Virus genome (UHGV): UHGV-0183637
DNA length: 36,660 nt
Source of the DNA: a virus
Strand: one strand, 5' to 3'
In this document: positions 1-14,711 of the stretch, one piece after another
Numbering within the stretch: position 1 is the first letter of the stretch
Layout of the letters: each line of letters opens with the position of its first letter
Made by a program: the position numbers and the translations under genes
Notes under the pieces: generated by a model
Databases searched by the model: none
Told to the model about the DNA's origin: nothing
The model's input: the letters and a program-made list of their open reading frames with translations, nothing else

Positions 1-491
1 TCATGGGAGATACCTTCCATCAGGCAACCATCACCCATAAACACATAAGTGAAGTGATCGACAATCTCATGATCCGGCTGGTTAAACTGCGCCGCCAGCG
101 TGCGTTCTGCTATCGCCAGTCCGACTGCGTTCGCCAGCCCCTGACCCAGCGGCCCCGTGGTGGTTTCCACACCCGGCGTATAGCCAATCTCCGGGTGACC
201 TGGTGTTTTTGAATGTAGCTGACGGAAGTTCTTCAGCTCTTCCAGCGGCAGGTCATAACCGGTCAGATGCAGCAAACTGTAGAGCAGCATCGATGCGTGA
301 CCGTTAGAGAGAATAAAGCGGTCGCGATCATACCAGGTCGGGTCGGTGGGGTTATGTTTAAGAAAATCGTTCCACAACACTTCGGCAATATCGGCCATGC
401 CCATCGGCGCGCCGGGATGACCAGAATTGGCTTTTTGCACCGCATCCATACTGAGCGCGCGAATCGCATTGGCAAGGTCTTTTCGGGACAT
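1..491 (-). CDS. tktB: Transketolase, N-terminal part (gene continues beyond window start)
   Basis: Minus-strand translation from ATG (complement of 489-491) reads [40 protein letters not shown]...[11 protein letters not shown], a recognisable transketolase N-terminus. Open to the window edge, so absent from the ORF track. Sits 19 bp downstream of the transaldolase gene, as in the talA-tktB operon. Confidence 0.85.
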
Positions 492-510
492 AGAACACTC
501 CGTGGCTGGT

Positions 511-1116
511 TTACAGTTTGGCGGCAAGAAGATCTTCCAGTTTGCGTTGATCGACAGCGAACAGGCGGATGCCTTCAGACAGTTTTTCTACCGCCATCGC
601 ATCCTGATTGTGTTCCCAACGAAATTCCGCTTCGCTCATAGGGGTAGGGCGCGGGAAATGCTGAGAAGGCGGGATTAATTTACGTACCACCGGCGAGACT
701 TTTTCCTGCAACTCTTTCAGCAAGTTCGGCGCGATGGTCAGACGGTCACAACCGGTTAAAGCGAGGATTTGCTCGGTACGGCGGAAACTTGCGCCCATCA
801 CGATGGTTTCGTAACGGTGCTGTTTATAGTAGTCGTAGATATTGCGTACTGATTTGACGCCCGGATCTTCTTCTACCACATATGGGTCCATTGGTTTGCG
901 CGCCTGATACCAGTCATAAATACGGCCCACAAACGGTGAAATCAGAAAAACGCCTGCTTCTGCGCAGGCTCGTGCCTGAGCAAAGGAAAACAGCAGCGTC
1001 AGATTGCAATTAATACCTTCTTTTTCCAGCTCTTCTGCCGCGCGAATTCCTTCCCATGTCGAAGCCAACTTGATCAGAATGCGTGACTTCTCAACGCCCT
1101 GCTGCTGGTACAAATC
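511..1116 (-). pseudogene. talA: Transaldolase, 5'-truncated by prophage insertion (C-terminal ~200 codons intact)
   Basis: Track ORF 511..1236 matches transaldolase from [43 protein letters not shown] to the C-terminal AAKL. The first ~40 residues of the ORF ([21 protein letters not shown]...) are not transaldolase-like and are read through the prophage end. Confidence 0.8.
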
Positions 1117-1428: not shown

Positions 1429-2055
1429 TCATGCTGATTTCTTGTTTACAGGCTTAGTTTCTTGCTCCGGTGTGACGGGAACGCGATCACCTGGTGTTCC
1501 TGCTCGGATACAGGATTTGGCGCGTTGCAAAATCTCTTTGTCAGTTTCTTCATTACCAGCCAATGCCACGCAAATGGCCTCTTTTAGAGAGTCCCTTATG
1601 TTTAAGTTACGTATAACAGTTTCTATGTCTGTTTCTACTGACGTAGCCAGCCGATTCAAAATCCCTTTTACACCAATTTCTGATGCTGCTATCGCTAACG
1701 CTTTTCGATCCTTACTACTCACAAATCCTAACAATGAAACGATTAACGCAACAGAATCATCGTCGCAATCGAACTTTGGTTCGATTTTTTCATAATTATT
1801 CGAATCATTGCCTTGTGGTTGTTCTCCTGTCAGTAGCCACATAAGTGAAACACCACAGGCATCGGCAACCCTTGCTGCGCTATCAATGGTTGGGTAACTA
1901 TCTCCCCTTAGGTATTTCCTGACAGATGCTTCAGATAAGCCACTACGGCGAGCAATCTCACTTTTGTTTAGCCCCCCCATCGCTTTTTCCAGTCTTTCGC
2001 CAAAGCGTACTATTTGCTCATTATGAAAAGTACGATCATGTTTAATTGATGTCAT
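1429..2055 (-). CDS. Prophage repressor, XRE/lambda-CI-type HTH with uncharacterised C-terminal domain
   Basis: 208 aa. N-terminal HTH segment LNKSEIARRSGLSEASVRKYLRGDSYPTIDSAARVADACGVSLMWLLTGEQ. Leftward-transcribed and divergent from ner-A-B, the position of Mu c. GGGAGA RBS-like sequence upstream on the minus strand. No obvious S24 peptidase motif in the C-terminal half. Confidence 0.8.
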   Translation of the reverse strand: MTSIKHDRTFHNEQIVRFGERLEKAMGGLNKSEIARRSGLSEASVRKYLRGDSYPTIDSAARVADACGVSLMWLLTGEQPQGNDSNNYEKIEPKFDCDDDSVALIVSLLGFVSSKDRKALAIAASEIGVKGILNRLATSVETDIETVIRNLNIRDSLKEAICVALAGNEETDKEILQRAKSCIRAGTPGDRVPVTPEQETKPVNKKSA

Positions 2056-2516: not shown

Positions 2517-4559
2517 GTGTGGTTTGTAGTGCGGGATTGCCTGGGATTATCCGGTTTTCCATCAGCAGAAAAAAACATCCGGGCACGTCTGGATCGTCTT
2601 GCTGAAAATAACCCGGAATGGAAGCGCAAGCGTGAAGGCACCAAAGCATTCGAGTATCGCATCGACTGCCTGCCCGCTGAAGCGCAGAAAGTTTTACGTA
2701 AGCGCCTGACCCATCAGGTCCTGGAAGATGCACAACTGCCCGCCGTAGTTGAGCAGAAAGCAGTTAAAAACGTCGCCGTTCGCGATGAACTGGAGGTGAT
2801 GGTCAAATGCCCGGAGCTGGCATTACGCGAAGTCCAGTCACTGACCGACAAGCAAAAGGCCATCGCTGATGCGCGGATATTGCTGGCTACTGAAGTGCAT
2901 AAGCTGCGCGAGTATGCCGGAATGACCAGGAAGGCCGCTTTAAAGCACATCGTTGATGGTGTGCGCATGGGGGCGTTACCTGACCGCATTATCGAAGCAG
3001 CGAATACTGCAAATGCACGTCAGGGAAAGCGAACCGGTGTCAGCACCGGCAGCCTGGATAGCTGGTACTCCAGCTGGGTGATGGCGCGCGGTGATGCCAA
3101 TCAGTTACTGGCGTTACTGGCTCCCGGTCATCATAAGGGAACACCGTGGGAGCAGGTCTGGTGGTTGAGCGATTTCTTTATGTTCTATCGCTCATGGAAG
3201 CGCCCGACCGTTGAATACGCGTATCGCGAGTTTTCAGCCTGGTGGCATGAAAAACACGCGAATGATGCGGGAATGCTGGCGGCACTGCCTTCAGTTCACG
3301 CAGTAAGACGGGTGTTAAGCAGCGTCCCGGTGATTGTTAAAGAGCGTTTCCGCTCCACCGGTTCAGCCTGGCGTTCGCTCAATCCCTTTGTGCGGCGCGA
3401 CTGGACATCGCTACCGGTTAATGCGGTATGGGTCGGAGATGGTCACTGTATGAAAATGACCGCGTTTAACCCCCTGACCGGCAATATTTTCCGGCCAGAA
3501 GTGACGCTGGTTATGGATGCGGGGCAGCGTTTTGTTGTGGGATGGTCACTGTCCCTGTCGGAGAACGTGATAGCTGTTGCTGATGCGTTGCGTTACGGCA
3601 TGGCGCAGCACGGGATACCGCTGATTTATTACTCCGATAACGGGGGCGGTGAAAAAAACCGGGTTCTTGATGCCGATATTACCGGGATTCTCCCCCGGCT
3701 GGGTGTGGAACATCACACGGGGATACCAGGTAACCCGCAGGGGCGCGGGGTGATTGAAAGGCTTAACAAGGAAATTCCCCGGGATGTGGCCCTGAGTTTC
3801 CAGACGTACTGCTCAAAGGGAGCAGACAAGGAAACCGTAATGATGCAGCAACGGATTATGCAGTCAGCCATTAAGGCCACCCACAAAGGGAAAGAACTGA
3901 CAAAACGGCAGGTTAAGGCGAGGGATGAAGTCCCCACCTTTGAGCAACTGATGGCAGCCATAGAACTGGAGGTCAGACGCTATAACAACCGGCCACACAG
4001 CAGCCTTCCCCGCAAAGAGGATGGCGAATATTACAGCCCGGCAGCGTATCGCCGGAAACTGATAAAAGAGCAGAATGTTGAAATTGATTTCCTGTCGCCG
4101 GAAGAACTGCATGAAATGTTCAGACCGGAAGTGACGCGCAAAACATTTCGCGGGGAAATTCAGTTATTCAACAATATTTATTACTCGTATGAGCTGGCCG
4201 CAGAGCACGGGAATGAAGTCAGGGTCAGTTACGATATTCATGATGCAAACAGCGTCATTGTCCGGCGGGCTGATGGCTCTTATATCTGCGATGCCATCTG
4301 GAACGGTAACAAGGTTGATGCCTTCGCTAAACCAGTTATCGAGCAAAAACTGGAGAAACGCGTCAGAGGCCGCATTGCACGGGCCGCGCAGAAAATCGAA
4401 GAGGCTAAACGCGAGCTTACCCCGGCTATTACGCAGAAGCCTGAGTTTAATCTGGGATATGGACTGGAACGCCAGGAGAAAAAGGAAAAAGAAGAACTTT
4501 ATTTATTCGCATCTGAACGCGAGCGCAATTTAAAGAAAAACGGCACAAACAACCGTTAA
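2517..4559 (+). CDS. Mu-type DDE transposase (MuA-like)
   Basis: 680 aa, GTG start after an AAGGTGGA RBS. N-terminus M-WFVVRDCLGLSGFP parallels MuA MELWVSPKECANLPGLP (enhancer/operator-binding domain). Central region WVGDGH...LVMDAGQRFVVGW...YYSDNGG is consistent with a Mu-family DDE core. Confidence 0.9.
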   Translation: MWFVVRDCLGLSGFPSAEKNIRARLDRLAENNPEWKRKREGTKAFEYRIDCLPAEAQKVLRKRLTHQVLEDAQLPAVVEQKAVKNVAVRDELEVMVKCPELALREVQSLTDKQKAIADARILLATEVHKLREYAGMTRKAALKHIVDGVRMGALPDRIIEAANTANARQGKRTGVSTGSLDSWYSSWVMARGDANQLLALLAPGHHKGTPWEQVWWLSDFFMFYRSWKRPTVEYAYREFSAWWHEKHANDAGMLAALPSVHAVRRVLSSVPVIVKERFRSTGSAWRSLNPFVRRDWTSLPVNAVWVGDGHCMKMTAFNPLTGNIFRPEVTLVMDAGQRFVVGWSLSLSENVIAVADALRYGMAQHGIPLIYYSDNGGGEKNRVLDADITGILPRLGVEHHTGIPGNPQGRGVIERLNKEIPRDVALSFQTYCSKGADKETVMMQQRIMQSAIKATHKGKELTKRQVKARDEVPTFEQLMAAIELEVRRYNNRPHSSLPRKEDGEYYSPAAYRRKLIKEQNVEIDFLSPEELHEMFRPEVTRKTFRGEIQLFNNIYYSYELAAEHGNEVRVSYDIHDANSVIVRRADGSYICDAIWNGNKVDAFAKPVIEQKLEKRVRGRIARAAQKIEEAKRELTPAITQKPEFNLGYGLERQEKKEKEELYLFASERERNLKKNGTNNR

Positions 4560-4577: not shown

Positions 4578-5471
4578 ATGAGTTTAATTACGCAATTAAA
4601 TGACGTAATGGCCCGTCGCGGCTATACGCAAACCCACGTCGCCCGTGCTATTGGTCGTAGCAGCGCCGTTATCAACCAGTATTTACAGGGTAAATATCAG
4701 GGCGATATGGCTGATATTGAAGAACGCATTTCTGCCTTTGTGACCCGTGAGCGGGAAAAGGAAAACAGCCGCCGTATTAAAGCGAAATTTGTTGCCACCG
4801 GTATGGCTGCCAAAGGACTGGAGGTGTTGGCCTATGCTCACCTGGAATGTGAAATCTGCGTACTGTATGGCGCGGCAGGTCTTGGCAAAACAATGATTCT
4901 GCGTGAATACGCCGCCAGAAACCGGGATGCGGTCCTGATTGAAGCCGACCCGGGCTATACAGCCAGAACACTGCTTGAGGAGTTGTGCCGCCAGCTGGGG
5001 GTAAAGGTTCGCGGCAACATTCACGAACTGATAGATGCCTGTGTGCGCGAACTGCGTGATTCCGGTCGCCTGCTGATGGTGGACGAGGCTGAACTGCTCC
5101 CCTATCGCGCACTGGAGGTTCTGCGTCGTCTGCATGACAAAGCGGGTATCGGGGTTGTCCTGGCGGGTATGCCTCGTCTTCTGATTAACCTTAAGGGGCG
5201 TCGTGGTGAGTTCGCCCAGTTATACAGCCGTGTGGCGCTGGCGCTTAACCTGGGCGATACGTTGTCGCAGGAAGATTTTAACCAGATAGCTACCGGGTTG
5301 ATGCCGGAAGCAGCAGAACCGGAAATCAGCGAGGCGCTTTACGCACGCTCGCTGGGTAATGCCCGCCGCCTCTTCAAACTGGCGCGCGGTGTGTACCGGA
5401 TTTGTGATATCAGCGATGCACCGGTCAGTGTGCAGGCCATTGATAAATTCGCAGAAATGTTAATTCACTGA
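4578..5471 (+). CDS. Transposition ATPase / target DNA activator (MuB-like AAA+)
   Basis: 297 aa. N-terminal HTH-like segment (GYTQTHVARAIGRSSAVINQY), Walker A GAAGLGKT, Walker B LLMVDEAE. Immediately downstream of the transposase gene. Confidence 0.85.
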   Translation: MSLITQLNDVMARRGYTQTHVARAIGRSSAVINQYLQGKYQGDMADIEERISAFVTREREKENSRRIKAKFVATGMAAKGLEVLAYAHLECEICVLYGAAGLGKTMILREYAARNRDAVLIEADPGYTARTLLEELCRQLGVKVRGNIHELIDACVRELRDSGRLLMVDEAELLPYRALEVLRRLHDKAGIGVVLAGMPRLLINLKGRRGEFAQLYSRVALALNLGDTLSQEDFNQIATGLMPEAAEPEISEALYARSLGNARRLFKLARGVYRICDISDAPVSVQAIDKFAEMLIH

Positions 5472-10269: not shown

Positions 10270-10680
10270 GTGAAGAAAATGATTTTTGTGGCGGCATTGC
10301 TGACCATTACCCAACAGGCGCAGGCTTCAGCAGTTATTGTGGCATCTACTGCTGCGACCACTGCTGCCGCAGCTGCTGCGAACTCTGCGAATATCGCAAA
10401 CCAACAGGCACAGCGTGCTGCTAATGCATCAGCCAGTGCTCTCCCGATTTCTGTTAAGGACAGTAAGCAAAATCTGGGGTTCATAACGTGCGGTAAGCGT
10501 TCTTCTGAAGCTGTAGGCTCACTGGGATGTACGGTATATGGCGACAGTGAGAGCAGAGAAATTCCATGGAAAACGTGGCCCGGATACGTTCTTGGCTCGA
10601 AGCTCCCGGCCAGTTATGAGGTAAACGCTGTGTCGTTTGACCACTATAACGGTGTGGCAACTGTCTATTTCACATACTGA
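10270..10680 (+). CDS. Secreted alanine-rich protein (signal peptide)
   Basis: N-terminus MKKMIFVAALLTITQQAQA then ASAV...; low-complexity Ala/Thr/Asn stretch; C-terminal half has two Cys. Confidence 0.6.
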   Translation: MKKMIFVAALLTITQQAQASAVIVASTAATTAAAAAANSANIANQQAQRAANASASALPISVKDSKQNLGFITCGKRSSEAVGSLGCTVYGDSESREIPWKTWPGYVLGSKLPASYEVNAVSFDHYNGVATVYFTY

Positions 10681-10779
10681 GTCCCGGCATGAAATTTTCT
10701 GAATCACGGAGTAACAACTCGATGAAAACTATCACCGTAACGGTTGAAATCGACGTTCCTGATAACGCGGGGTGAAAAT

Positions 10780-11031
10780 ATGAGATGGGTTGACCTTTTT
10801 ATTATCGCTCTGATTGTTACGGGTATTGCGCTTTGTGTGACAACTAACAAGGCTTCTGATGATGCGAAAAATGGGCATTGCGTGGTAAAGAGAAATTTCA
10901 TCAAAACCATTACGCATTGTGATGATGGAAGCGCCACCATGACCGACGGAGATAAGTTTATTTATTGCTCTGCGGGGAAAAATGGCACGCCATCCTGTCA
11001 TGAAGTGACGCTCGGTGATGGTGATAAATAA
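10780..11031 (+). CDS. Small membrane-anchored Cys-rich protein
   Basis: ATG at 10780 (MRWVDLFIIALIVTGIALCVTTNK...), N-terminal hydrophobic anchor then a soluble part with five Cys. Confidence 0.55.
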   Translation: MRWVDLFIIALIVTGIALCVTTNKASDDAKNGHCVVKRNFIKTITHCDDGSATMTDGDKFIYCSAGKNGTPSCHEVTLGDGDK

Positions 11032-11064
11032 TTCACCATATTGAGTAGATAATAACCATGTGTA

Positions 11065-11108
11065 GACCAAAACATATGTTTTGGTCTGCCAAAAGTAATG
11101 TTTTGGTC
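11065..11108. promoter_or_regulatory. Tandem dyad operator-like sites (perfect 22-bp palindrome plus half-site repeat)
   Basis: GACCAAAACATATGTTTTGGTC (11065..11086) is a perfect palindrome; second imperfect site gCCAAAAGtaATGTTTTGGTC (11088..11108) about 22 bp centre to centre; immediately upstream of ATG 11112. Confidence 0.5.
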
Positions 11109-11111
11109 ATT

Positions 11112-11390
11112 ATGAAAATTGAACAAATCGGAATGGCAGCCTTCCGGCAGCAGGCTGAAAGCGGTGGCGTGGATGAGTTCGTCGTGCAGCGGTTCGGTGG
11201 TGTGTATCACCTCTTCGCTGTGAATCGCCACGCCGGGGTGTCCTATTTTCTACAGGAACGCCGTGGCGATTACAAGACGTGGCTGTCTCTTGACCGTGCC
11301 GCCGCGTTCCTGTCGGGGATTGGTGTTTCACGTTTTACCGTGCGTTTTGAGGATAACAAACATGCTGAAAAAGATGATCGGAGCCATTAA
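11112..11390 (+). CDS. Hypothetical protein
   Basis: ATG at 11112 directly downstream of the palindromic sites; 92 aa; weak RBS; overlaps the GemA-like start by 29 nt. Confidence 0.45.
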   Translation: MKIEQIGMAAFRQQAESGGVDEFVVQRFGGVYHLFAVNRHAGVSYFLQERRGDYKTWLSLDRAAAFLSGIGVSRFTVRFEDNKHAEKDDRSH

Positions 11391-11760
11391 AGCCGGTCAG
11401 GCGTATCTGGGGTGGGATGATGCCCTTTATCGTCAGACGCTGGCCCGCCTGACCGGTAAAACCAGCACCACACGCTGCAACCTCGATGAACTGCGCATCA
11501 TCCGGGAATACATGCATGAACAGGGATTTCCGCGTAAGGCACCCGCCGGTAAAGGTCGCCGCCCCCGTGTTGCAATGAGCAGAAAATCGATATTATCCAA
11601 AATTGAAGCGTTGCTGGCTGATGCCGGTCGTTCCTGGGCGTATGCAGAAGGACTGGCATCTCACATGTATAAGCAACATGTGATCGAATGGCTGACAGAT
11701 GATCAACTGTTTGGGGTGATGGTGGCGCTGGTTAAAGATTCAAGAAGGAGAAATCAATGA
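11362..11760 (+). CDS. GemA-like regulatory protein (Mu gp16 family)
   Basis: ATG at 11362 after GAGGA; MLKKMIGAIKAGQAYLGWDDALYRQTLARLTGKTSTTRCNLDELRIIREYMHEQGF resembles the GemA family and sits upstream of the Mor/C-family gene, as in Mu. Confidence 0.7.
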   Translation: MLKKMIGAIKAGQAYLGWDDALYRQTLARLTGKTSTTRCNLDELRIIREYMHEQGFPRKAPAGKGRRPRVAMSRKSILSKIEALLADAGRSWAYAEGLASHMYKQHVIEWLTDDQLFGVMVALVKDSRRRNQ

Positions 11761-12233
11761 TGAAAAAATGGTTGTTTTGTTTAGTAGGAGTTATTTTCTC
11801 TTGTTCTGCGCTGGCTCAGACAGAGGAACAGGCGCAAAAAGAACTGAAACGTTATCAGGATATGAAGCCATTGGCTGAACAGATGCTTCGGGAAAGTGGA
11901 AAACTTTATTACGCTATGCCAGCGGCAGCATCGCAGTACCAGCAGGGGAATATTGAAGAGTGGAAGAATATCAAAAAAGGACTAAAACAACTGGATGAAC
12001 AGGCCAGTAAACTGGGGGACGACCCGCTTGATCCTGTGTATGGTTCCTGCATAAAAATGAAAAACCAGCTACAGGATTACTGGTCTAACGTTATCAGGGA
12101 TGACAGGCAGTTTCTGGAACGTTCAAGAAATCAGTTTAAAGAATATCGTATGGATTGTTTTGATTCGTTTGTTTTTGGTAAAGAGCAAATAGAATCAAGA
12201 AAAGGCCTGGTTATTCTAGACCTGACTAAATAA
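11757..12233 (+). CDS. Secreted (periplasmic) protein of unknown function
   Basis: ATGA overlap with the GemA-like stop; signal peptide MMKKWLFCLVGVIFSCSALA then QTEE; AT-rich codon usage; followed by a rho-independent terminator. Confidence 0.65.
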   Translation: MMKKWLFCLVGVIFSCSALAQTEEQAQKELKRYQDMKPLAEQMLRESGKLYYAMPAAASQYQQGNIEEWKNIKKGLKQLDEQASKLGDDPLDPVYGSCIKMKNQLQDYWSNVIRDDRQFLERSRNQFKEYRMDCFDSFVFGKEQIESRKGLVILDLTK

Positions 12234-12245
12234 GACTTAGTTTAG

Positions 12246-12270
12246 CCCCTGCCATGCAGGGGATTTTTTT
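12246..12270 (+). terminator. Rho-independent terminator
   Basis: CCCCTGC-cat-GCAGGGG stem-loop followed by ATTTTTTT. Confidence 0.7.
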
Positions 12271-12275
12271 GTGGT

Positions 12276-12304
12276 CTGTACAGGCGATCATGTATGGCTA
12301 TAAT
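12276..12304 (+). promoter_or_regulatory. Putative promoter of the Mor/C-family gene (-10 TATAAT at 12299..12304, weak -35)
   Basis: Perfect TATAAT hexamer 30 nt upstream of the start codon; no good TTGACA 17 bp upstream, consistent with an activator-dependent promoter. Confidence 0.35.
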
Positions 12305-12333: not shown

Positions 12334-12801
12334 ATGCAGACCTTCAGTGAAACAGATCTTCGCGATGCGCAGGCACTGCTGCCCGATTCCGTGCAGCAAC
12401 TGATTAGCGTGATTGGCTTCCCCGCCCTGACCCGGTTAATCCGTTCTTTTGGTGGCGTGACGTTAAGCGGTAAAACCGGCGCACACGCCGAACGAACCGG
12501 CGGTGTCCATGCCCTGTTACATGATGTGCTGACCGAAGACGAAATCAACAAACTGATCCGCTTTCTTGGCGGTGCACCGTTTTACATTCCCCGTTGCGAT
12601 CATGCGTTACGTGCCCTGCGTAACACCCGTTTTATGGCTGATTTACAGCAGCATGTAAAAGACGGATGCTCACACCGGCAGGCGCTGGCACTGCTCTGTC
12701 CCCGTTACGGGATTTCAGACCGGTATGCATGGCAACTGATACACCGACGACAAAAACAGACTTCGCTGAAAAGCCCCACCCAGGTGGGGCTTTTTGATTA
12801 A
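12334..12801 (+). CDS. Mor/C-family transcriptional activator
   Basis: 155 aa; FLGGAPFYIPRCDHALRALRN matches the GG..YIPR signature of Mu Mor/C, with a C-terminal HTH (YGISDRYAWQLIHRR). GGAGA RBS 7 nt upstream. A GC-rich stem-loop plus T-run overlaps the 3' end. Confidence 0.8.
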   Translation: MQTFSETDLRDAQALLPDSVQQLISVIGFPALTRLIRSFGGVTLSGKTGAHAERTGGVHALLHDVLTEDEINKLIRFLGGAPFYIPRCDHALRALRNTRFMADLQQHVKDGCSHRQALALLCPRYGISDRYAWQLIHRRQKQTSLKSPTQVGLFD

Positions 12802-13156: not shown

Positions 13157-13303
13157 CCAGCAGTACCCACCACACCAGACCGTTTACCCTGTCCACTCAG
13201 ACCACAAGGCACCTTAAGGGATAGCGCCCTGCAAAAGGCTTTTGTGCCTTTGACAGGGTGTTATTTACGGGCCGTCAGTGGCTCAGATTTACAGGAGAAA
13301 CTC

Positions 13304-13717
13304 ATGTCTGAACCCTTATCAGGCGGCGGAGCTGTGGCAGTCACCATCGGTGGTGCCAGTGTGTTTGGTCTTCTCACCAATACCGATTTCGGGGTTGTGG
13401 TGGGCGCGTTTGCCGGGGCGCTTTTTGTTGTCACGCAGCAGAAAGAAATCCCGGTATGGCGAATGGCTATTCACCTGCTCGTCGCGTTTGTGGTTGGCGT
13501 TCTGGGGGCTGGCGTGGCTGCGTCACTGATGCAGTGGCTGACCCACTACAACGACAAGCCGCTCGATGCATTGTGTGCGGTCGGTGTCTCGGCATTATCC
13601 ATCAAGATACTGACCTTTTTTTATCAGCAGGAAATCAAAGTCCTGCTCGGTATGTTCTCAAAACTGTTCAACCTCGTATCAAAGTTGTGCGGTGGAGGGG
13701 GTGAAAATGGAAAGTAG
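13304..13717 (+). CDS. Holin-like multi-pass membrane protein
   Basis: ATG at 13304 after CAGGAGA; 137 aa with several Gly/Ala/Val-rich hydrophobic segments; first gene of the lysis cluster. Confidence 0.55.
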   Translation: MSEPLSGGGAVAVTIGGASVFGLLTNTDFGVVVGAFAGALFVVTQQKEIPVWRMAIHLLVAFVVGVLGAGVAASLMQWLTHYNDKPLDALCAVGVSALSIKILTFFYQQEIKVLLGMFSKLFNLVSKLCGGGGENGK

Positions 13718-14003
13718 CTTTGCCGGTATTGTGAACGTCTGGCTGTGTCTCGCCATTGTGCTGGGGTTGTTTATGTATCGCCGCCACGGCGCAGCGCATA
13801 AACCAATGATTACCTGGCTGGCGTACTGGCTGATGCTCGGCTACGGCGTCATCCCGCTCCTCTGGCTGACGGGGTCACATACGCACTCCAGCTGGCTGGC
13901 GGTGGCACTGAATCTGGTTTTCTGTGCGCTTATCGTGTGGGCGCGCGGGAATTTGTCAAAAATCCTTTCGTTACTGAGGCATCCACATGAAATCAAAAGA
14001 TGA
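13707..14003 (+). CDS. Small membrane protein (holin/antiholin-like)
   Basis: ATG at 13707 after GGAGGGGG; 98 aa with about three predicted transmembrane segments; overlaps the endolysin start. Confidence 0.55.
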   Translation: MESSFAGIVNVWLCLAIVLGLFMYRRHGAAHKPMITWLAYWLMLGYGVIPLLWLTGSHTHSSWLAVALNLVFCALIVWARGNLSKILSLLRHPHEIKR

Positions 14004-14532
14004 CATTTTTGATGAAGTCCTGGGCAAAGAAGGCGGTTACGTCAATCACCCGGATGATAAGGGCGGCCCGACCAAATGGGGCATTACGGAAAAAGTCGCC
14101 CGCGCCCACGGATACCGTGGCGATATGCGTGAGTTAACCCGCGAACAGGCGCTGGATATCCTTGAAGCCGATTACTGGTATGGCCCGCGATTTGACCAGG
14201 TCGCCGCATTATCCCCTGATATTGCCGCAGAGCTGTGTGATACTGGTGTGAATATGGGGCCAACCGTGGCGTCCAGAATGCTTCAGCGCTGGCTGAACGT
14301 TTTCAACCTGCGCGGCAGGCTGTACCCGGATATGGATACAGACGGACGCATCGGACCTCGCACCATCAGTGCATTGCGCGCCTTCCTGAATAATCGCGGT
14401 CAGGACGGTGAGCGGGTGATGCTGACGGCCCTGAACTGCACGCAGGGTGACCGCTATCTGGAACTGGCAGAGAAACGCGAGGCTAACGAATCGTTTGTTT
14501 ATGGCTGGCTGAAGGAGCGCGTGGCGGTATGA
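13987..14532 (+). CDS. Endolysin, GH108-type with peptidoglycan-binding domain
   Basis: N-terminus EGGYVNHPDDKGGPTKWGIT matches the GH108 signature as I recall it; 181 aa; located between membrane proteins and a small lipoprotein. Confidence 0.8.
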   Translation: MKSKDDIFDEVLGKEGGYVNHPDDKGGPTKWGITEKVARAHGYRGDMRELTREQALDILEADYWYGPRFDQVAALSPDIAAELCDTGVNMGPTVASRMLQRWLNVFNLRGRLYPDMDTDGRIGPRTISALRAFLNNRGQDGERVMLTALNCTQGDRYLELAEKREANESFVYGWLKERVAV

Positions 14533-14711
14533 CGCGTCAGCACTGGACACACAGAACGCCACGTAAAGCCGCGCGCTGTGTTCTGGCCCTGTTTCTGGTG
14601 ATGTTGCTTCCGGTGGGATGCACAGACATTAACAGGGCGGGCCAGCTGTTTGACGCGGCGGCGCAGGTCTGCCGGATTGTTGACGGCATCCGGCAGTGCT
14701 CACAGAACTGA
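14529..14711 (+). CDS. Small lipoprotein-like protein (possible spanin component)
   Basis: 60 aa; hydrophobic CVLALFLVMLLPVGC followed by a soluble tail; ATGA overlap with the endolysin stop. Confidence 0.4.
   Translation: MTRQHWTHRTPRKAARCVLALFLVMLLPVGCTDINRAGQLFDAAAQVCRIVDGIRQCSQN

Follow-up and report, generated by a model that had tools for sequence, protein, structure and literature searches.

A swappable slot between gemA and mor of a Mu-like prophage carries an accessory gene whose small product is predicted to be exported and helical

The DNA analyzed here (the window) is the 36,660-nucleotide sequence of virus genome UHGV-0183637, a Mu-like prophage. Toward the end of its early operon, a GemA-like gene (11362..11760, + strand; Pfam GemA, E = 1.2e-18; phrog_286, E = 4.7e-37) is followed by a gene for a 158-aa exported protein, here labelled X (11757..12233, +), an intrinsic terminator (12246..12270, +), a sigma-70-like promoter (12277..12304, +) and a Mor/C-family activator gene (12334..12801, +; Pfam Mor, E = 1.1e-6; phrog_836, E = 1.2e-42). 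The TGA stop of the GemA-like gene (11758..11760) overlaps the ATG of gene X (11757..11759) to give ATGA, and a Shine-Dalgarno sequence, AAGGAG (11745..11750, +), lies 6 nt 5' of this ATG within the 3' end of gemA. Judged by this arrangement, gene X is translationally coupled to gemA. The original prediction of a 158-aa signal-peptide reading frame joined to the GemA-like gene in this way was borne out, as was that of a single Mor/C-family gene: tblastn of the window found no second Mor-like gene.

Gene X had also been described as AT-rich, and its GC content is 40.7% (GC3 40.3%) compared with 51.6% for gemA, 54.1% for mor (52-54% in the neighbours) and 53.7% for the window as a whole. Pairwise dN/dS values in the gene X family are 0.06-0.15, a substitution pattern indicating purifying selection on the gene and speaking against a frame that is open by chance. 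Because homologues exist and dN/dS is this low, we regard gene X, which was defined from the list of open reading frames, as a genuine coding sequence.

The terminator was found by a scan and consists of a 7-bp stem (12246..12252 paired with 12256..12262) with six G-C pairs and a 3-nt loop, followed by an A and a run of seven T residues (12264..12270). Its free energy is -13.4 kcal/mol. Taken alone, the hairpin betters shuffled sequence only modestly (z = -2.0), but it is conserved across eight loci with compensatory changes at three of nine pairs. The promoter-like site before mor combines TGTACA (12277..12282), a 16-nt spacer and TATAAT (12299..12304) and matches at 10 of 12 positions in the promoter scan. 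CTGTACA and GGCTATAAT are invariant in eight loci whatever the slot between gemA and mor contains, the divergent L016 lineage included. In L003, a relative in which this slot is empty, gemA is followed directly by a nearly identical hairpin (CCCCTGCCTTGCAGGGG plus a T-run) and by an identical promoter and mor leader; terminator and promoter also recur in relatives that carry two unrelated cargo genes. This conservation indicates that the two elements are not part of a cargo insertion but belong to the phage backbone, where one closes the early operon and the other serves as promoter of mor. The original prediction had given the exported-protein gene its own terminator, followed by a separate promoter-like region ending in TATAAT. 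Both features exist, but the hairpin is not the cargo's own, being kept in empty-slot and other-cargo relatives, and the promoter is likewise backbone by conservation. For this phage group, the terminator and promoter between gemA and mor are thereby established as the backbone border that separates early operon from activator gene, which is useful for annotating such prophages.

Alignment with the empty-slot relative L003 delimits a polymorphic cargo slot at 11729..12243 (+): homology ends after position 11728, which falls within the last ~10 codons of gemA, and restarts at the terminator. Among 58 E. coli genomes with a gemA-mor region, the slot holds an X-family gene in 23, a 112-aa gene in 11 and a 174-aa gene in 5, the last two counts being assigned by insert length with one of each read; it is empty in 19 (L003 and 18 others), where only the terminator and promoter separate gemA and mor. 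Gene X is thus absent from 35 of the 58. The 112-aa and 174-aa genes are unrelated to it, and the one of each that was read also encodes a signal-peptide N-terminus. Within the 23 genomes, X comes as two alleles of ~70% protein identity, which reside in prophage backbones that are ~97% identical. The 5' ~110 nt of the two alleles are nearly identical, which argues for recombination within gene X, and truncated copies exist (P0010 and P0012), so the gene is dispensable. With three unrelated exported proteins and two X alleles, the slot resembles a site of diversifying exchange. Overall, gene X is genuine, occupies a swappable cargo slot of a Mu-like prophage as an accessory gene and encodes a small protein predicted to be exported and helical, and we hold this anatomical layer of our explanation with high confidence.

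Searched exhaustively, 1.84 billion representatives yielded 11 members of the X family. Homologues are found in E. coli, E. albertii, Salmonella and Yersinia, and some of the hosts are pathogenic, among them EPEC E2348/69, STEC strains and Yersinia enterocolitica. The E2348/69 prophage carries a 99%-identical copy. Every family context that was read is a Mu-like prophage with the gene placed just after GemA or Mor, members of only 23% identity included, and the family spans more than eight lineages with at least four endolysin types. X is a member of a small family confined to Mu-like prophages and not a one-off import. Comparison with relatives was the check proposed at the outset: X is not universal in Mu-like phages, nor does it have a known virion or replication role.

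Scans of the protein against Pfam, PHROG, NCBIfam and PADLOC yielded no match, and Pfam scans of 17 members gave nothing consistent. Megablast and tblastn of the window's gene X against 50,697 deposited phage records gave no match. A distant member as query reached only Klebsiella phage ST405-OXA48phi1.1, at E = 0.2, and the membership of this phage was confirmed by profile comparison. A PDB sequence profile search with X returned designed helical bundles only, a scan of one-genome-per-species contigs with the close-family alignment found no X member, and the literature on X protein accessions and on exported proteins beside gemA or mor yielded nothing specific.

Hydropathy and alignments predict a Sec signal peptide at residues 1-20, MMKKWLFCLVGVIFSCSALA (11757..11816, +), cleaved after A-L-A. 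The N-terminus reads MMKK-WLFCLVGVIFSCS-ALA/QTEE and combines a basic n-region, a 13-residue hydrophobic core (mean Kyte-Doolittle 2.7) and an A-x-A site, the cleavage position being placed by the -3/-1 rule. In line with the expectation of an exported cargo, which the presence of the gene in only some relatives at a fixed position also bears out, this pattern is kept in all 17 aligned family members despite their variable sequence. Reading 'IFSC' as the site of a lipoprotein was rejected because Cys16 is not conserved (P0003 and P0004 have Phe in its place, and distant members lack it) and the A-x-A site is conserved instead. The X family therefore lacks the conserved lipobox cysteine by which Cor/Llp-type lipoprotein exclusion factors are recognized.

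The mature protein (11817..12230, +) would have 138 aa, ~16.3 kDa and a pI of 6.6. Its AF2 model is a four-helix bundle (pLDDT 82.7, pTM 0.73), and the same four helices were obtained for P0018, a member of 23% identity that was modelled independently. The only invariant columns in the 17-member alignment are G64, C98, W109 and C134. In the predicted model, C98 (12048..12050) on helix 3 and C134 (12156..12158) on helix 4 are level with each other, and this helix register makes a disulfide staple between them plausible. Near the C-terminus lies a conserved hydrophobic tail motif (12207..12224, +), which is LVILDL here and LAIVNV, LAVVPV, LAIIDV or LGIIDF in relatives of the same alignment. The tail is modelled with low confidence (pLDDT <50 at residues 153-158 of X); in P0018, residues 137-150 are non-helical and pLDDT is <50 at 145-150. 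Mature X is thus predicted to be a soluble periplasmic four-helix bundle with a flexible tail.

When would such a protein be made? All genes from MuA (2517) through X lie on the + strand in the same direction, and the promoter scan found no promoter-like site between gemA and gene X. Lacking a promoter of its own and coupled to gemA in translation, gene X is most simply read as originally proposed, as expressed with the early operon. Gene X would then be the final gene expressed from the early lytic transcript that starts at ner/A/B, and from the gene layout we consider such early lytic timing probable.

An alternative is that X is a lysogenic-conversion factor, transcribed in the repressed prophage from an internal promoter upstream of orf94-gemA and yielding a periplasmic product that aids the host, for example by acting as an immunity protein or inhibitor against lysozyme, colicins or T6SS peptidoglycan hydrolases, or by promoting colonisation. 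Upstream of the orf94-gemA-X block there is indeed a promoter-like site, GTGACG-16-AATAAT (11005..11032), with a conserved 24-bp palindrome 3' of it that is a possible operator (both within 11005..11088), and together they could provide separate regulation of this block. However, the site is weak (9 of 12 positions), and sites of this grade are no commoner in this region than in shuffled sequence. A low-GC variable cargo gene for an exported protein is the classic profile of a conversion gene, and the pathogens named above are among the hosts. Against this stand the lack of an adjacent promoter and the coupling of X to an early lytic gene. Moreover, the family was not found outside Mu-like prophages and keeps its adjacency to GemA or Mor even in its most distant members, which fits a role in the phage cycle better than cargo of benefit to the host.

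Known periplasmic immunity and inhibitor families are also unmatched. None of the lysozyme-inhibitor Pfam families Ivy, MliC/PliC, PliG, PliI and LprI/DUF1311 matched any of the 17 members at E values up to 5, nor did the lysozyme-inhibitor families in NCBIfam match X. A remote kinship with DUF1311/LprI had been suspected from the motif 'F..yRmdC' and was unsupported by the profile scans. We therefore regard a conversion factor, with any of the host benefits listed, as unlikely.

Gene X also lies close to the lysis cassette, and it might regulate the timing of lysis by modulating a holin, endolysin or spanin, in the manner of an antiholin or of T4 RI, or by conditioning the envelope for lysis. 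T4 RI is a small secreted helical protein produced before lysis. In the lineages checked that have the order Mor-X, gene X precedes the lysis genes: it is directly 5' of the endolysin gene (L015 and the Klebsiella phage) or two genes 5' of a lysozyme gene (L023), while the short contig L025 shows Mor-X alone. In Mu, the non-essential membrane proteins gp19 and gp20 are encoded at a comparable position in the middle operon (PMC9239132). Yet the X family occurs alongside GH108, GH24-type Phage_lysozyme, Amidase_2 and GH19 endolysins and differing holin families. Identical holins (WP_001372993.1 and WP_000445983.1) occur both with allele A and with allele B, which is 70% identical to it, and the second of these holins also occurs beside an empty slot, so X does not co-vary with a lysis partner; moreover, 35 of the 58 close relatives do without X. 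The shared holins and the four endolysin types weaken the reading of X as an antiholin or endolysin partner, and we judge a lysis-timing role to be improbable.

More specifically, X could be an inner-membrane spanin subunit, with its N-terminus as an uncleaved anchor and its helical body as a periplasmic bridge to the 60-aa lipoprotein of a lipobox reading frame 3' of the endolysin gene (14529..14711, from the list of open reading frames). No inner-membrane spanin gene was recognized beside that frame, and X has the expected ~150 aa, N-terminal hydrophobic segment, helical body and conserved cysteines. Lambda Rz has a similar size and layout. But 35 of the 58 close relatives keep the same lysis cassette and lack X, and elsewhere X coexists with two-gene spanin-like pairs (LysC-like in L016 and L022; Phage_lysis in L023). 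The hydrophobic segment spans only ~13-16 residues before the conserved A-x-A, the predicted bundle is compact with no extended coiled coil, and gene X is not adjacent to the lipobox frame. This reading is largely refuted by the pattern of presence and absence and is extremely unlikely.

The signal peptide and the invariant cysteine pair would also suit an effector that enters the periplasm for oxidative folding, is freed by lysis and acts outside the cell, on competitors or an animal host, in the manner of Shiga toxin. The gene layout ties expression to the lytic cycle, and the family is found in enteric pathogens. On the other side, toxin and effector families are unmatched, a small neutral helical bundle in which only a glycine, a tryptophan and two cysteines are invariant offers no catalytic motif, and gene X is early, not late. 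A released effector is very unlikely.

What, then, might the slot select for? Enteric pathogens commonly carry Mu-like (transposable) prophages, whose small early genes mostly have no assigned function. Here, a single genomic point in otherwise near-identical prophages is occupied by genes for at least three exported proteins that are unrelated to one another, and by two alleles that have diverged. Elsewhere, such slot patterns mark competition genes, that is, genes for defence, counter-defence or exclusion. From the exchange pattern of the slot, we judge an envelope-level competition or protection factor of the early lytic phase to be the most likely role of X. The protein would be exported by Sec, cleaved after Ala20 and retained in the periplasm, where it would bind a periplasmic or incoming-phage component and so block superinfection or another attack on the envelope. 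We give this explanation as a whole, an operon-embedded accessory periplasmic protein made early in the lytic cycle for envelope competition or protection, a probability of about 45%. An X that is repressed in the lysogen could not protect it, and any benefit would thus be limited to the lytic cycle. Profile, phage-record and PDB searches found no homology to Spackle, to exclusion proteins or to lysozyme inhibitors, and an exclusion or protection function as such, drawn by analogy with T4 Spackle, is a tentative proposal; the lysozyme-inhibitor or exclusion activity raised at the outset is likewise speculative.

A broader and more doubtful extension is that the 3' slot of the early operon in enterobacterial Mu-like phages is a hotspot for exported weapons used between phages or against bacteriocins, with the X family as a new class of periplasmic superinfection-exclusion protein. 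The tail of X offers one conceivable mechanism. Its consensus, (D/E/N)-L-A-I/V-I/V-x-V/F with W next in some alleles, resembles the TonB-box motif found in TonB-dependent receptors and in group B colicins. X might dock by strand addition onto an energy-transducing protein of the periplasm, such as TonB or TolA, and thereby shut the entry of competing phages and colicins. If so, a lysogen would be harmed by such a block, and this would account for the tie of X to the early lytic transcript.

The family is small, is unannotated in the profile libraries tested and has a confident predicted fold, which makes it amenable to study as a candidate for a new mechanism of exclusion or protection in the periplasm. 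With its near-identical copy, the well-studied EPEC strain E2348/69 is a ready experimental system. Should X give no envelope-related phenotype, it would be merely another accessory reading frame.

Several known systems resemble X in part. The ligand-binding domains of Tar and Tsr and the sensor domains of NarQ, TorS and QseE are, like X, periplasmic up-down helical domains of ~140-160 aa. Foldseek matches of X to such domains lack statistical significance, with E values no better than 0.04, TM scores of 0.35-0.52 and identities of 4-14%, and they appear alongside talin and designed bundles; the structural similarity of the X model to four-helix-bundle sensors is therefore generic. Unlike these domains, X stands alone and is predicted to be soluble, without flanking TM helices, a signalling module or a Pfam match (4HB_MCP). 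Mu gp19 and gp20 share with X the targeting to the envelope and a position around the Mor/C regulators. In contrast to X, predicted to be soluble, secreted and encoded at the end of the early operon, they are membrane-embedded and are encoded in the middle operon after Pm, and X shows no sequence similarity to them, Mu giving no tblastn match.

T4 Spackle (Sp, gp61.3) is made early and exported by a signal peptide, forms a helical bundle with one disulfide and blocks the tail lysozyme of a superinfecting phage (PMC7677548). The likeness to X would be that of a pre-late phage gene for a small all-helical periplasmic bundle with a cleavable export signal and a single disulfide, all of which are predicted on the side of X. 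However, Spackle shows no sequence similarity to X (tblastn of the 50,697 phage records; PHROG; Pfam) and is missing from the listed fold matches of X. The mature X protein is about double its length (138 compared with 75 aa), and a tail lysozyme, the target of Spackle, is not known for Mu-like phages. The likeness is one of functional analogy only.

Gene X shares with morons, such as those of lambdoid phages, the presence or absence of a single gene between two genes that adjoin in relatives, and a deviant base composition. The classical moron of Juhala and Hendrix, however, brings its own promoter and terminator, and X has neither, using the early transcript and the backbone terminator. The Mu-like phages of Pseudomonas have fixed plasticity regions with accessory genes, and morons and these regions resemble the slot described here in a single gene that comes and goes at a fixed point, in its deviant base composition and in its unrelated alternatives (PMC4378225). 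In the transposable phage Fc02, an early-operon gene confers exclusion (PMC9936078).

ORF X (11757..12233, + strand) encodes a 158-aa protein and, judging by pairwise dN/dS of 0.06-0.15 in comparisons with E. coli, Yersinia and Salmonella homologues (dS ranging up to saturation), is a real gene. Its ATG at 11757 overlaps the gemA stop codon (TGA, 11758..11760) downstream of an AAGGAG (11745..11750), which bears out the predicted ATGA coupling to the GemA-like gene. By hydropathy, the N-terminus divides into the n-, h- and c-regions of a Sec signal peptide (MMKK, WLFCLVGVIFSCS and ALA/QTEE; slash, cleavage site). All 17 aligned family members share this pattern despite varying in sequence, in agreement with the original prediction of a signal-peptide protein. 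A lipobox reading of Cys16 ("IFSC") was rejected: the residue is Phe in two close homologues and missing in distant ones. Since Cys16 is not conserved, the conserved feature is predicted signal peptidase I cleavage after Ala20. The AT-rich codon usage was also confirmed (GC 40.7% and GC3 40.3% for X vs GC of 51.6% for gemA, 54.1% for mor and 53.7% for the window), and the remaining predicted features (ORF, hairpin and promoter-like site) were all found in place.

Bases 1..1116 of the window match every one of 5,426 complete E. coli genomes at ~90-95% identity and are therefore host flank. As identity is mostly only 90-95%, the host may not be typical E. coli itself but another, closely related Escherichia species or clade. 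A Mu-like transposable prophage makes up the window from ~1117 onward. It has a minus-strand CI-type repressor (1429..2055) and then, co-directional on the plus strand, Mu transposase A (2517..4559), a MuB-like ATPase (4578..5471), a DUF3164 gene, a DUF2786 gene and a row of small ORFs, the GemA-like gene (11362..11760) and ORF X. A Mor-family gene (12334..12801), two holins (13244..14003) and a GH108 endolysin (13987..14532) follow. The Mor-family gene is single, as proposed, and tblastn of the window detected no second Mor/C-like gene. A 60-aa ORF (14529..14711) overlaps the endolysin stop by ATGA and carries a lipobox (LLPVGC) and three further cysteines; its product looks like an outer-membrane spanin, and no adjoining inner-membrane spanin gene was recognised.

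Downstream of X lie a hairpin (12246..12262) followed by T7 (to 12270), with a folding energy of -13.4 kcal/mol, and a promoter-like TGTACA-16-TATAAT ending at 12304. The gemA-mor region was found in 58 of the 5,426 E. coli genomes. With the empty-slot junction as query, we read the state of the slot between the gemA stop and the terminator from the match span in each genome; one representative per slot class was inspected and the others were assigned from span and annotation. On this basis, the slot is empty in 19 genomes (461 bp), holds X in 23 (~920 bp), a 112-aa gene in 11 (~780 bp) and a 174-aa gene in 5 (~1,030 bp). The comparison with related Mu-like prophages that the original prediction called for thus gives X in 23/58 and an empty slot in 19/58. 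The same terminator and promoter elements follow the two unrelated genes in loci L020 and L021, and they can also be recognised in Yersinia, in Salmonella and in a more divergent lineage (locus L016). Across eight loci the hairpin pairing is kept, with compensatory changes at 3/9 positions and alternative stems (CCCCTGC/GCAGGGG, CCTCCGC/GCGGAGG and GCCCCGCC/GGCGGGGC). By this conservation, terminator and promoter are backbone elements: whether the slot is filled or not, the former ends the early operon and the latter serves mor. The elements themselves were thus correctly predicted, and the attribution to X of "its own" terminator was mistaken.

The other two slot occupants, a 174-aa gene (L020:571-1095, E. 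coli RSHH22) and a 112-aa gene (L021:519-857, E. coli STEC313; likewise coupled to gemA via an ATGA overlap), encode proteins that start with typical signal peptides (MKKLLLLILALCFTGISHA/SD and VKSKIINSIIIGSLLLSTPVFA/DW). No significant family match was obtained for either; the 112-aa protein matches the Sel1 repeat weakly (E = 0.022). If signal peptides are rare among phage proteins (a background rate estimated rather than computed), export signals in 3/3 unrelated occupants would be unlikely to arise by chance. X itself occurs in two alleles: 12 of the 23 copies are ~98% and 11 are ~76% identical in nucleotides to the window, and the two proteins are 70% identical within flanking gemA and mor DNA of ~97% identity. 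The first ~110 nt are nearly the same in both despite this divergence, which points to recombination within the gene.

A word-indexed search of 5.8 billion proteins returned 10 relatives, which come from E. coli, E. albertii, Salmonella enterica and Yersinia enterocolitica and are all annotated "hypothetical". When 1.84 billion cluster representatives were searched exhaustively by profile, 11 members were returned, down to 23% identity. Full-length members have 147-172 aa and a predicted signal peptide, share invariant G64, C98, W109 and C134, and mostly end in a hydrophobic motif (LVILDL, LAIVNVW, LAVVPVW, LAIIDV or LGIIDF). Two of the 11, from E. coli and metagenome records, are truncated or frameshifted (P0010, 106 aa; P0012, 66 aa), which suggests that X can be lost through occasional decay; one of them reads through into terminator sequence. 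Every member with readable context lies in a Mu-like prophage, either directly after GemA (the window group, P0011, P0013 and P0014) or after Mor (P0015, P0016 and P0018). Among deposited phages, Klebsiella phage ST405-OXA48phi1.1 encodes a member, QBA84959.1 (hhalign E = 1.4e-9, probability 96%), flanked by a Mor-like ORF, itself unannotated, and a GH19 endolysin. Given the breadth of this family beside GemA/Mor, we rejected a recent acquisition from bacteria; by its distribution, X is an old, optional part of the Mu-like phage gene pool, placed at the early/late boundary. In two loci with a member after Mor (L015:8455-8532 and L019:4482-4562), the endolysin gene is preceded by a short gap with two shared features, the motif CCACTGAA(C/G)CCC and a hairpin (ACACCA...TGGTGT) ending exactly at the endolysin start codon; either a late promoter or an element of translational control may lie here.

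Proximity to the lysis cassette, and the comparable position of Mu gp19 and gp20 (PMC9239132), would fit a lysis-timing factor. However, identical holins accompany alleles A and B, one of them also an empty slot, and four endolysin types (GH108, GH24-type, Amidase_2 and GH19) accompany the family. An inner-membrane spanin role for X is excluded by the presence/absence pattern in the 58 genomes.

AlphaFold2 on the close-family alignment (pLDDT 82.7, pTM 0.73) predicts helices at about 21-62, 67-86, 96-114 and 117-157 after the signal peptide. An independent model of the 23%-identical P0018 has the same four helices (all five models ~80), with signal peptide and C-terminal tail disordered. Because C98 and C134 lie on opposite sides of the helix 3-helix 4 turn, each ~18 residues from it, they should face each other, making a disulfide plausible. 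A BFVD structure search gave nothing significant, and the reading of X as a released effector lacks supporting similarity.

X is thus a coupled gene without a promoter that closes a long co-directional array of early genes. A conserved terminator follows it, and the X product has export signals. For an exported cargo expressed with the early operon, as originally predicted, layout and signals are in place; timing and export are what we infer. After induction or infection, X would be expressed together with the early lytic genes. Its export would be by Sec, with cleavage after Ala20 and oxidation in the periplasm, where it would act as a soluble 16-kDa bundle. Tentatively, at a probability of about 0.3, we propose that X acts at the envelope to guard the infected cell, either by exclusion of superinfecting phages or by a block to other periplasmic attack. 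This reading draws on (i) near-identical backbones that carry alternative exported cargos and divergent alleles, (ii) a close functional parallel in T4 Spackle, a helical bundle with a single disulfide that is made early and exported and inhibits the tail lysozyme of the incoming phage (PMC7677548), and (iii) precedents in early-operon exclusion genes of a transposable phage (PMC9936078) and fixed plasticity regions of Pseudomonas Mu-like phages (PMC4378225). X would gain interest if the slot were a dedicated site for envelope-level competition genes, or if the conserved tail were a strand that docks onto TonB, TolA or another such periplasmic machine.

Given an internal promoter, X could possibly be a conversion factor expressed in the lysogen, and a weak promoter-like site and a conserved 24-bp palindrome do lie upstream of orf94-gemA; however, confinement of the family to Mu-like phages and the GemA/Mor neighbourhood argues for a role in the phage cycle. 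The palindrome is perfect (AGACCAAAACATATGTTTTGGTCT), is followed by a partial repeat (GCCAAAAGTAATGTTTTGGTC; together 11065..11105) just upstream of the 94-aa ORF, and stays conserved among relatives from E. coli, Yersinia and Salmonella, with variable sequence on its left. Its role could be that of an operator; alternatively, it could form a hairpin at the left border of the conserved orf94-gemA block. Directly upstream, a low-GC stretch (41-44%, about 10700..11060) holds a 95-aa ORF (10744..11031, phrog_8391) and appears to be a second variable slot, since homology to most E. coli relatives begins only at ~11046..11064. Further upstream, ORF 10270..10680 (136 aa; phrog_8805, of unknown function) has a clear signal peptide (MKKMIFVAALLTITQQAQA/SAV) and an alanine/threonine-rich stretch after the cleavage site; thus the distal early region encodes more than one predicted exported protein.

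X resembles a moron or plasticity-region gene in distribution and base composition but departs from the moron definition in both promoter and terminator. It is similar to T4 Spackle in general design but not homologous. The X family is unannotated, yet exported accessory proteins that are optional in a temperate phage are a familiar kind.
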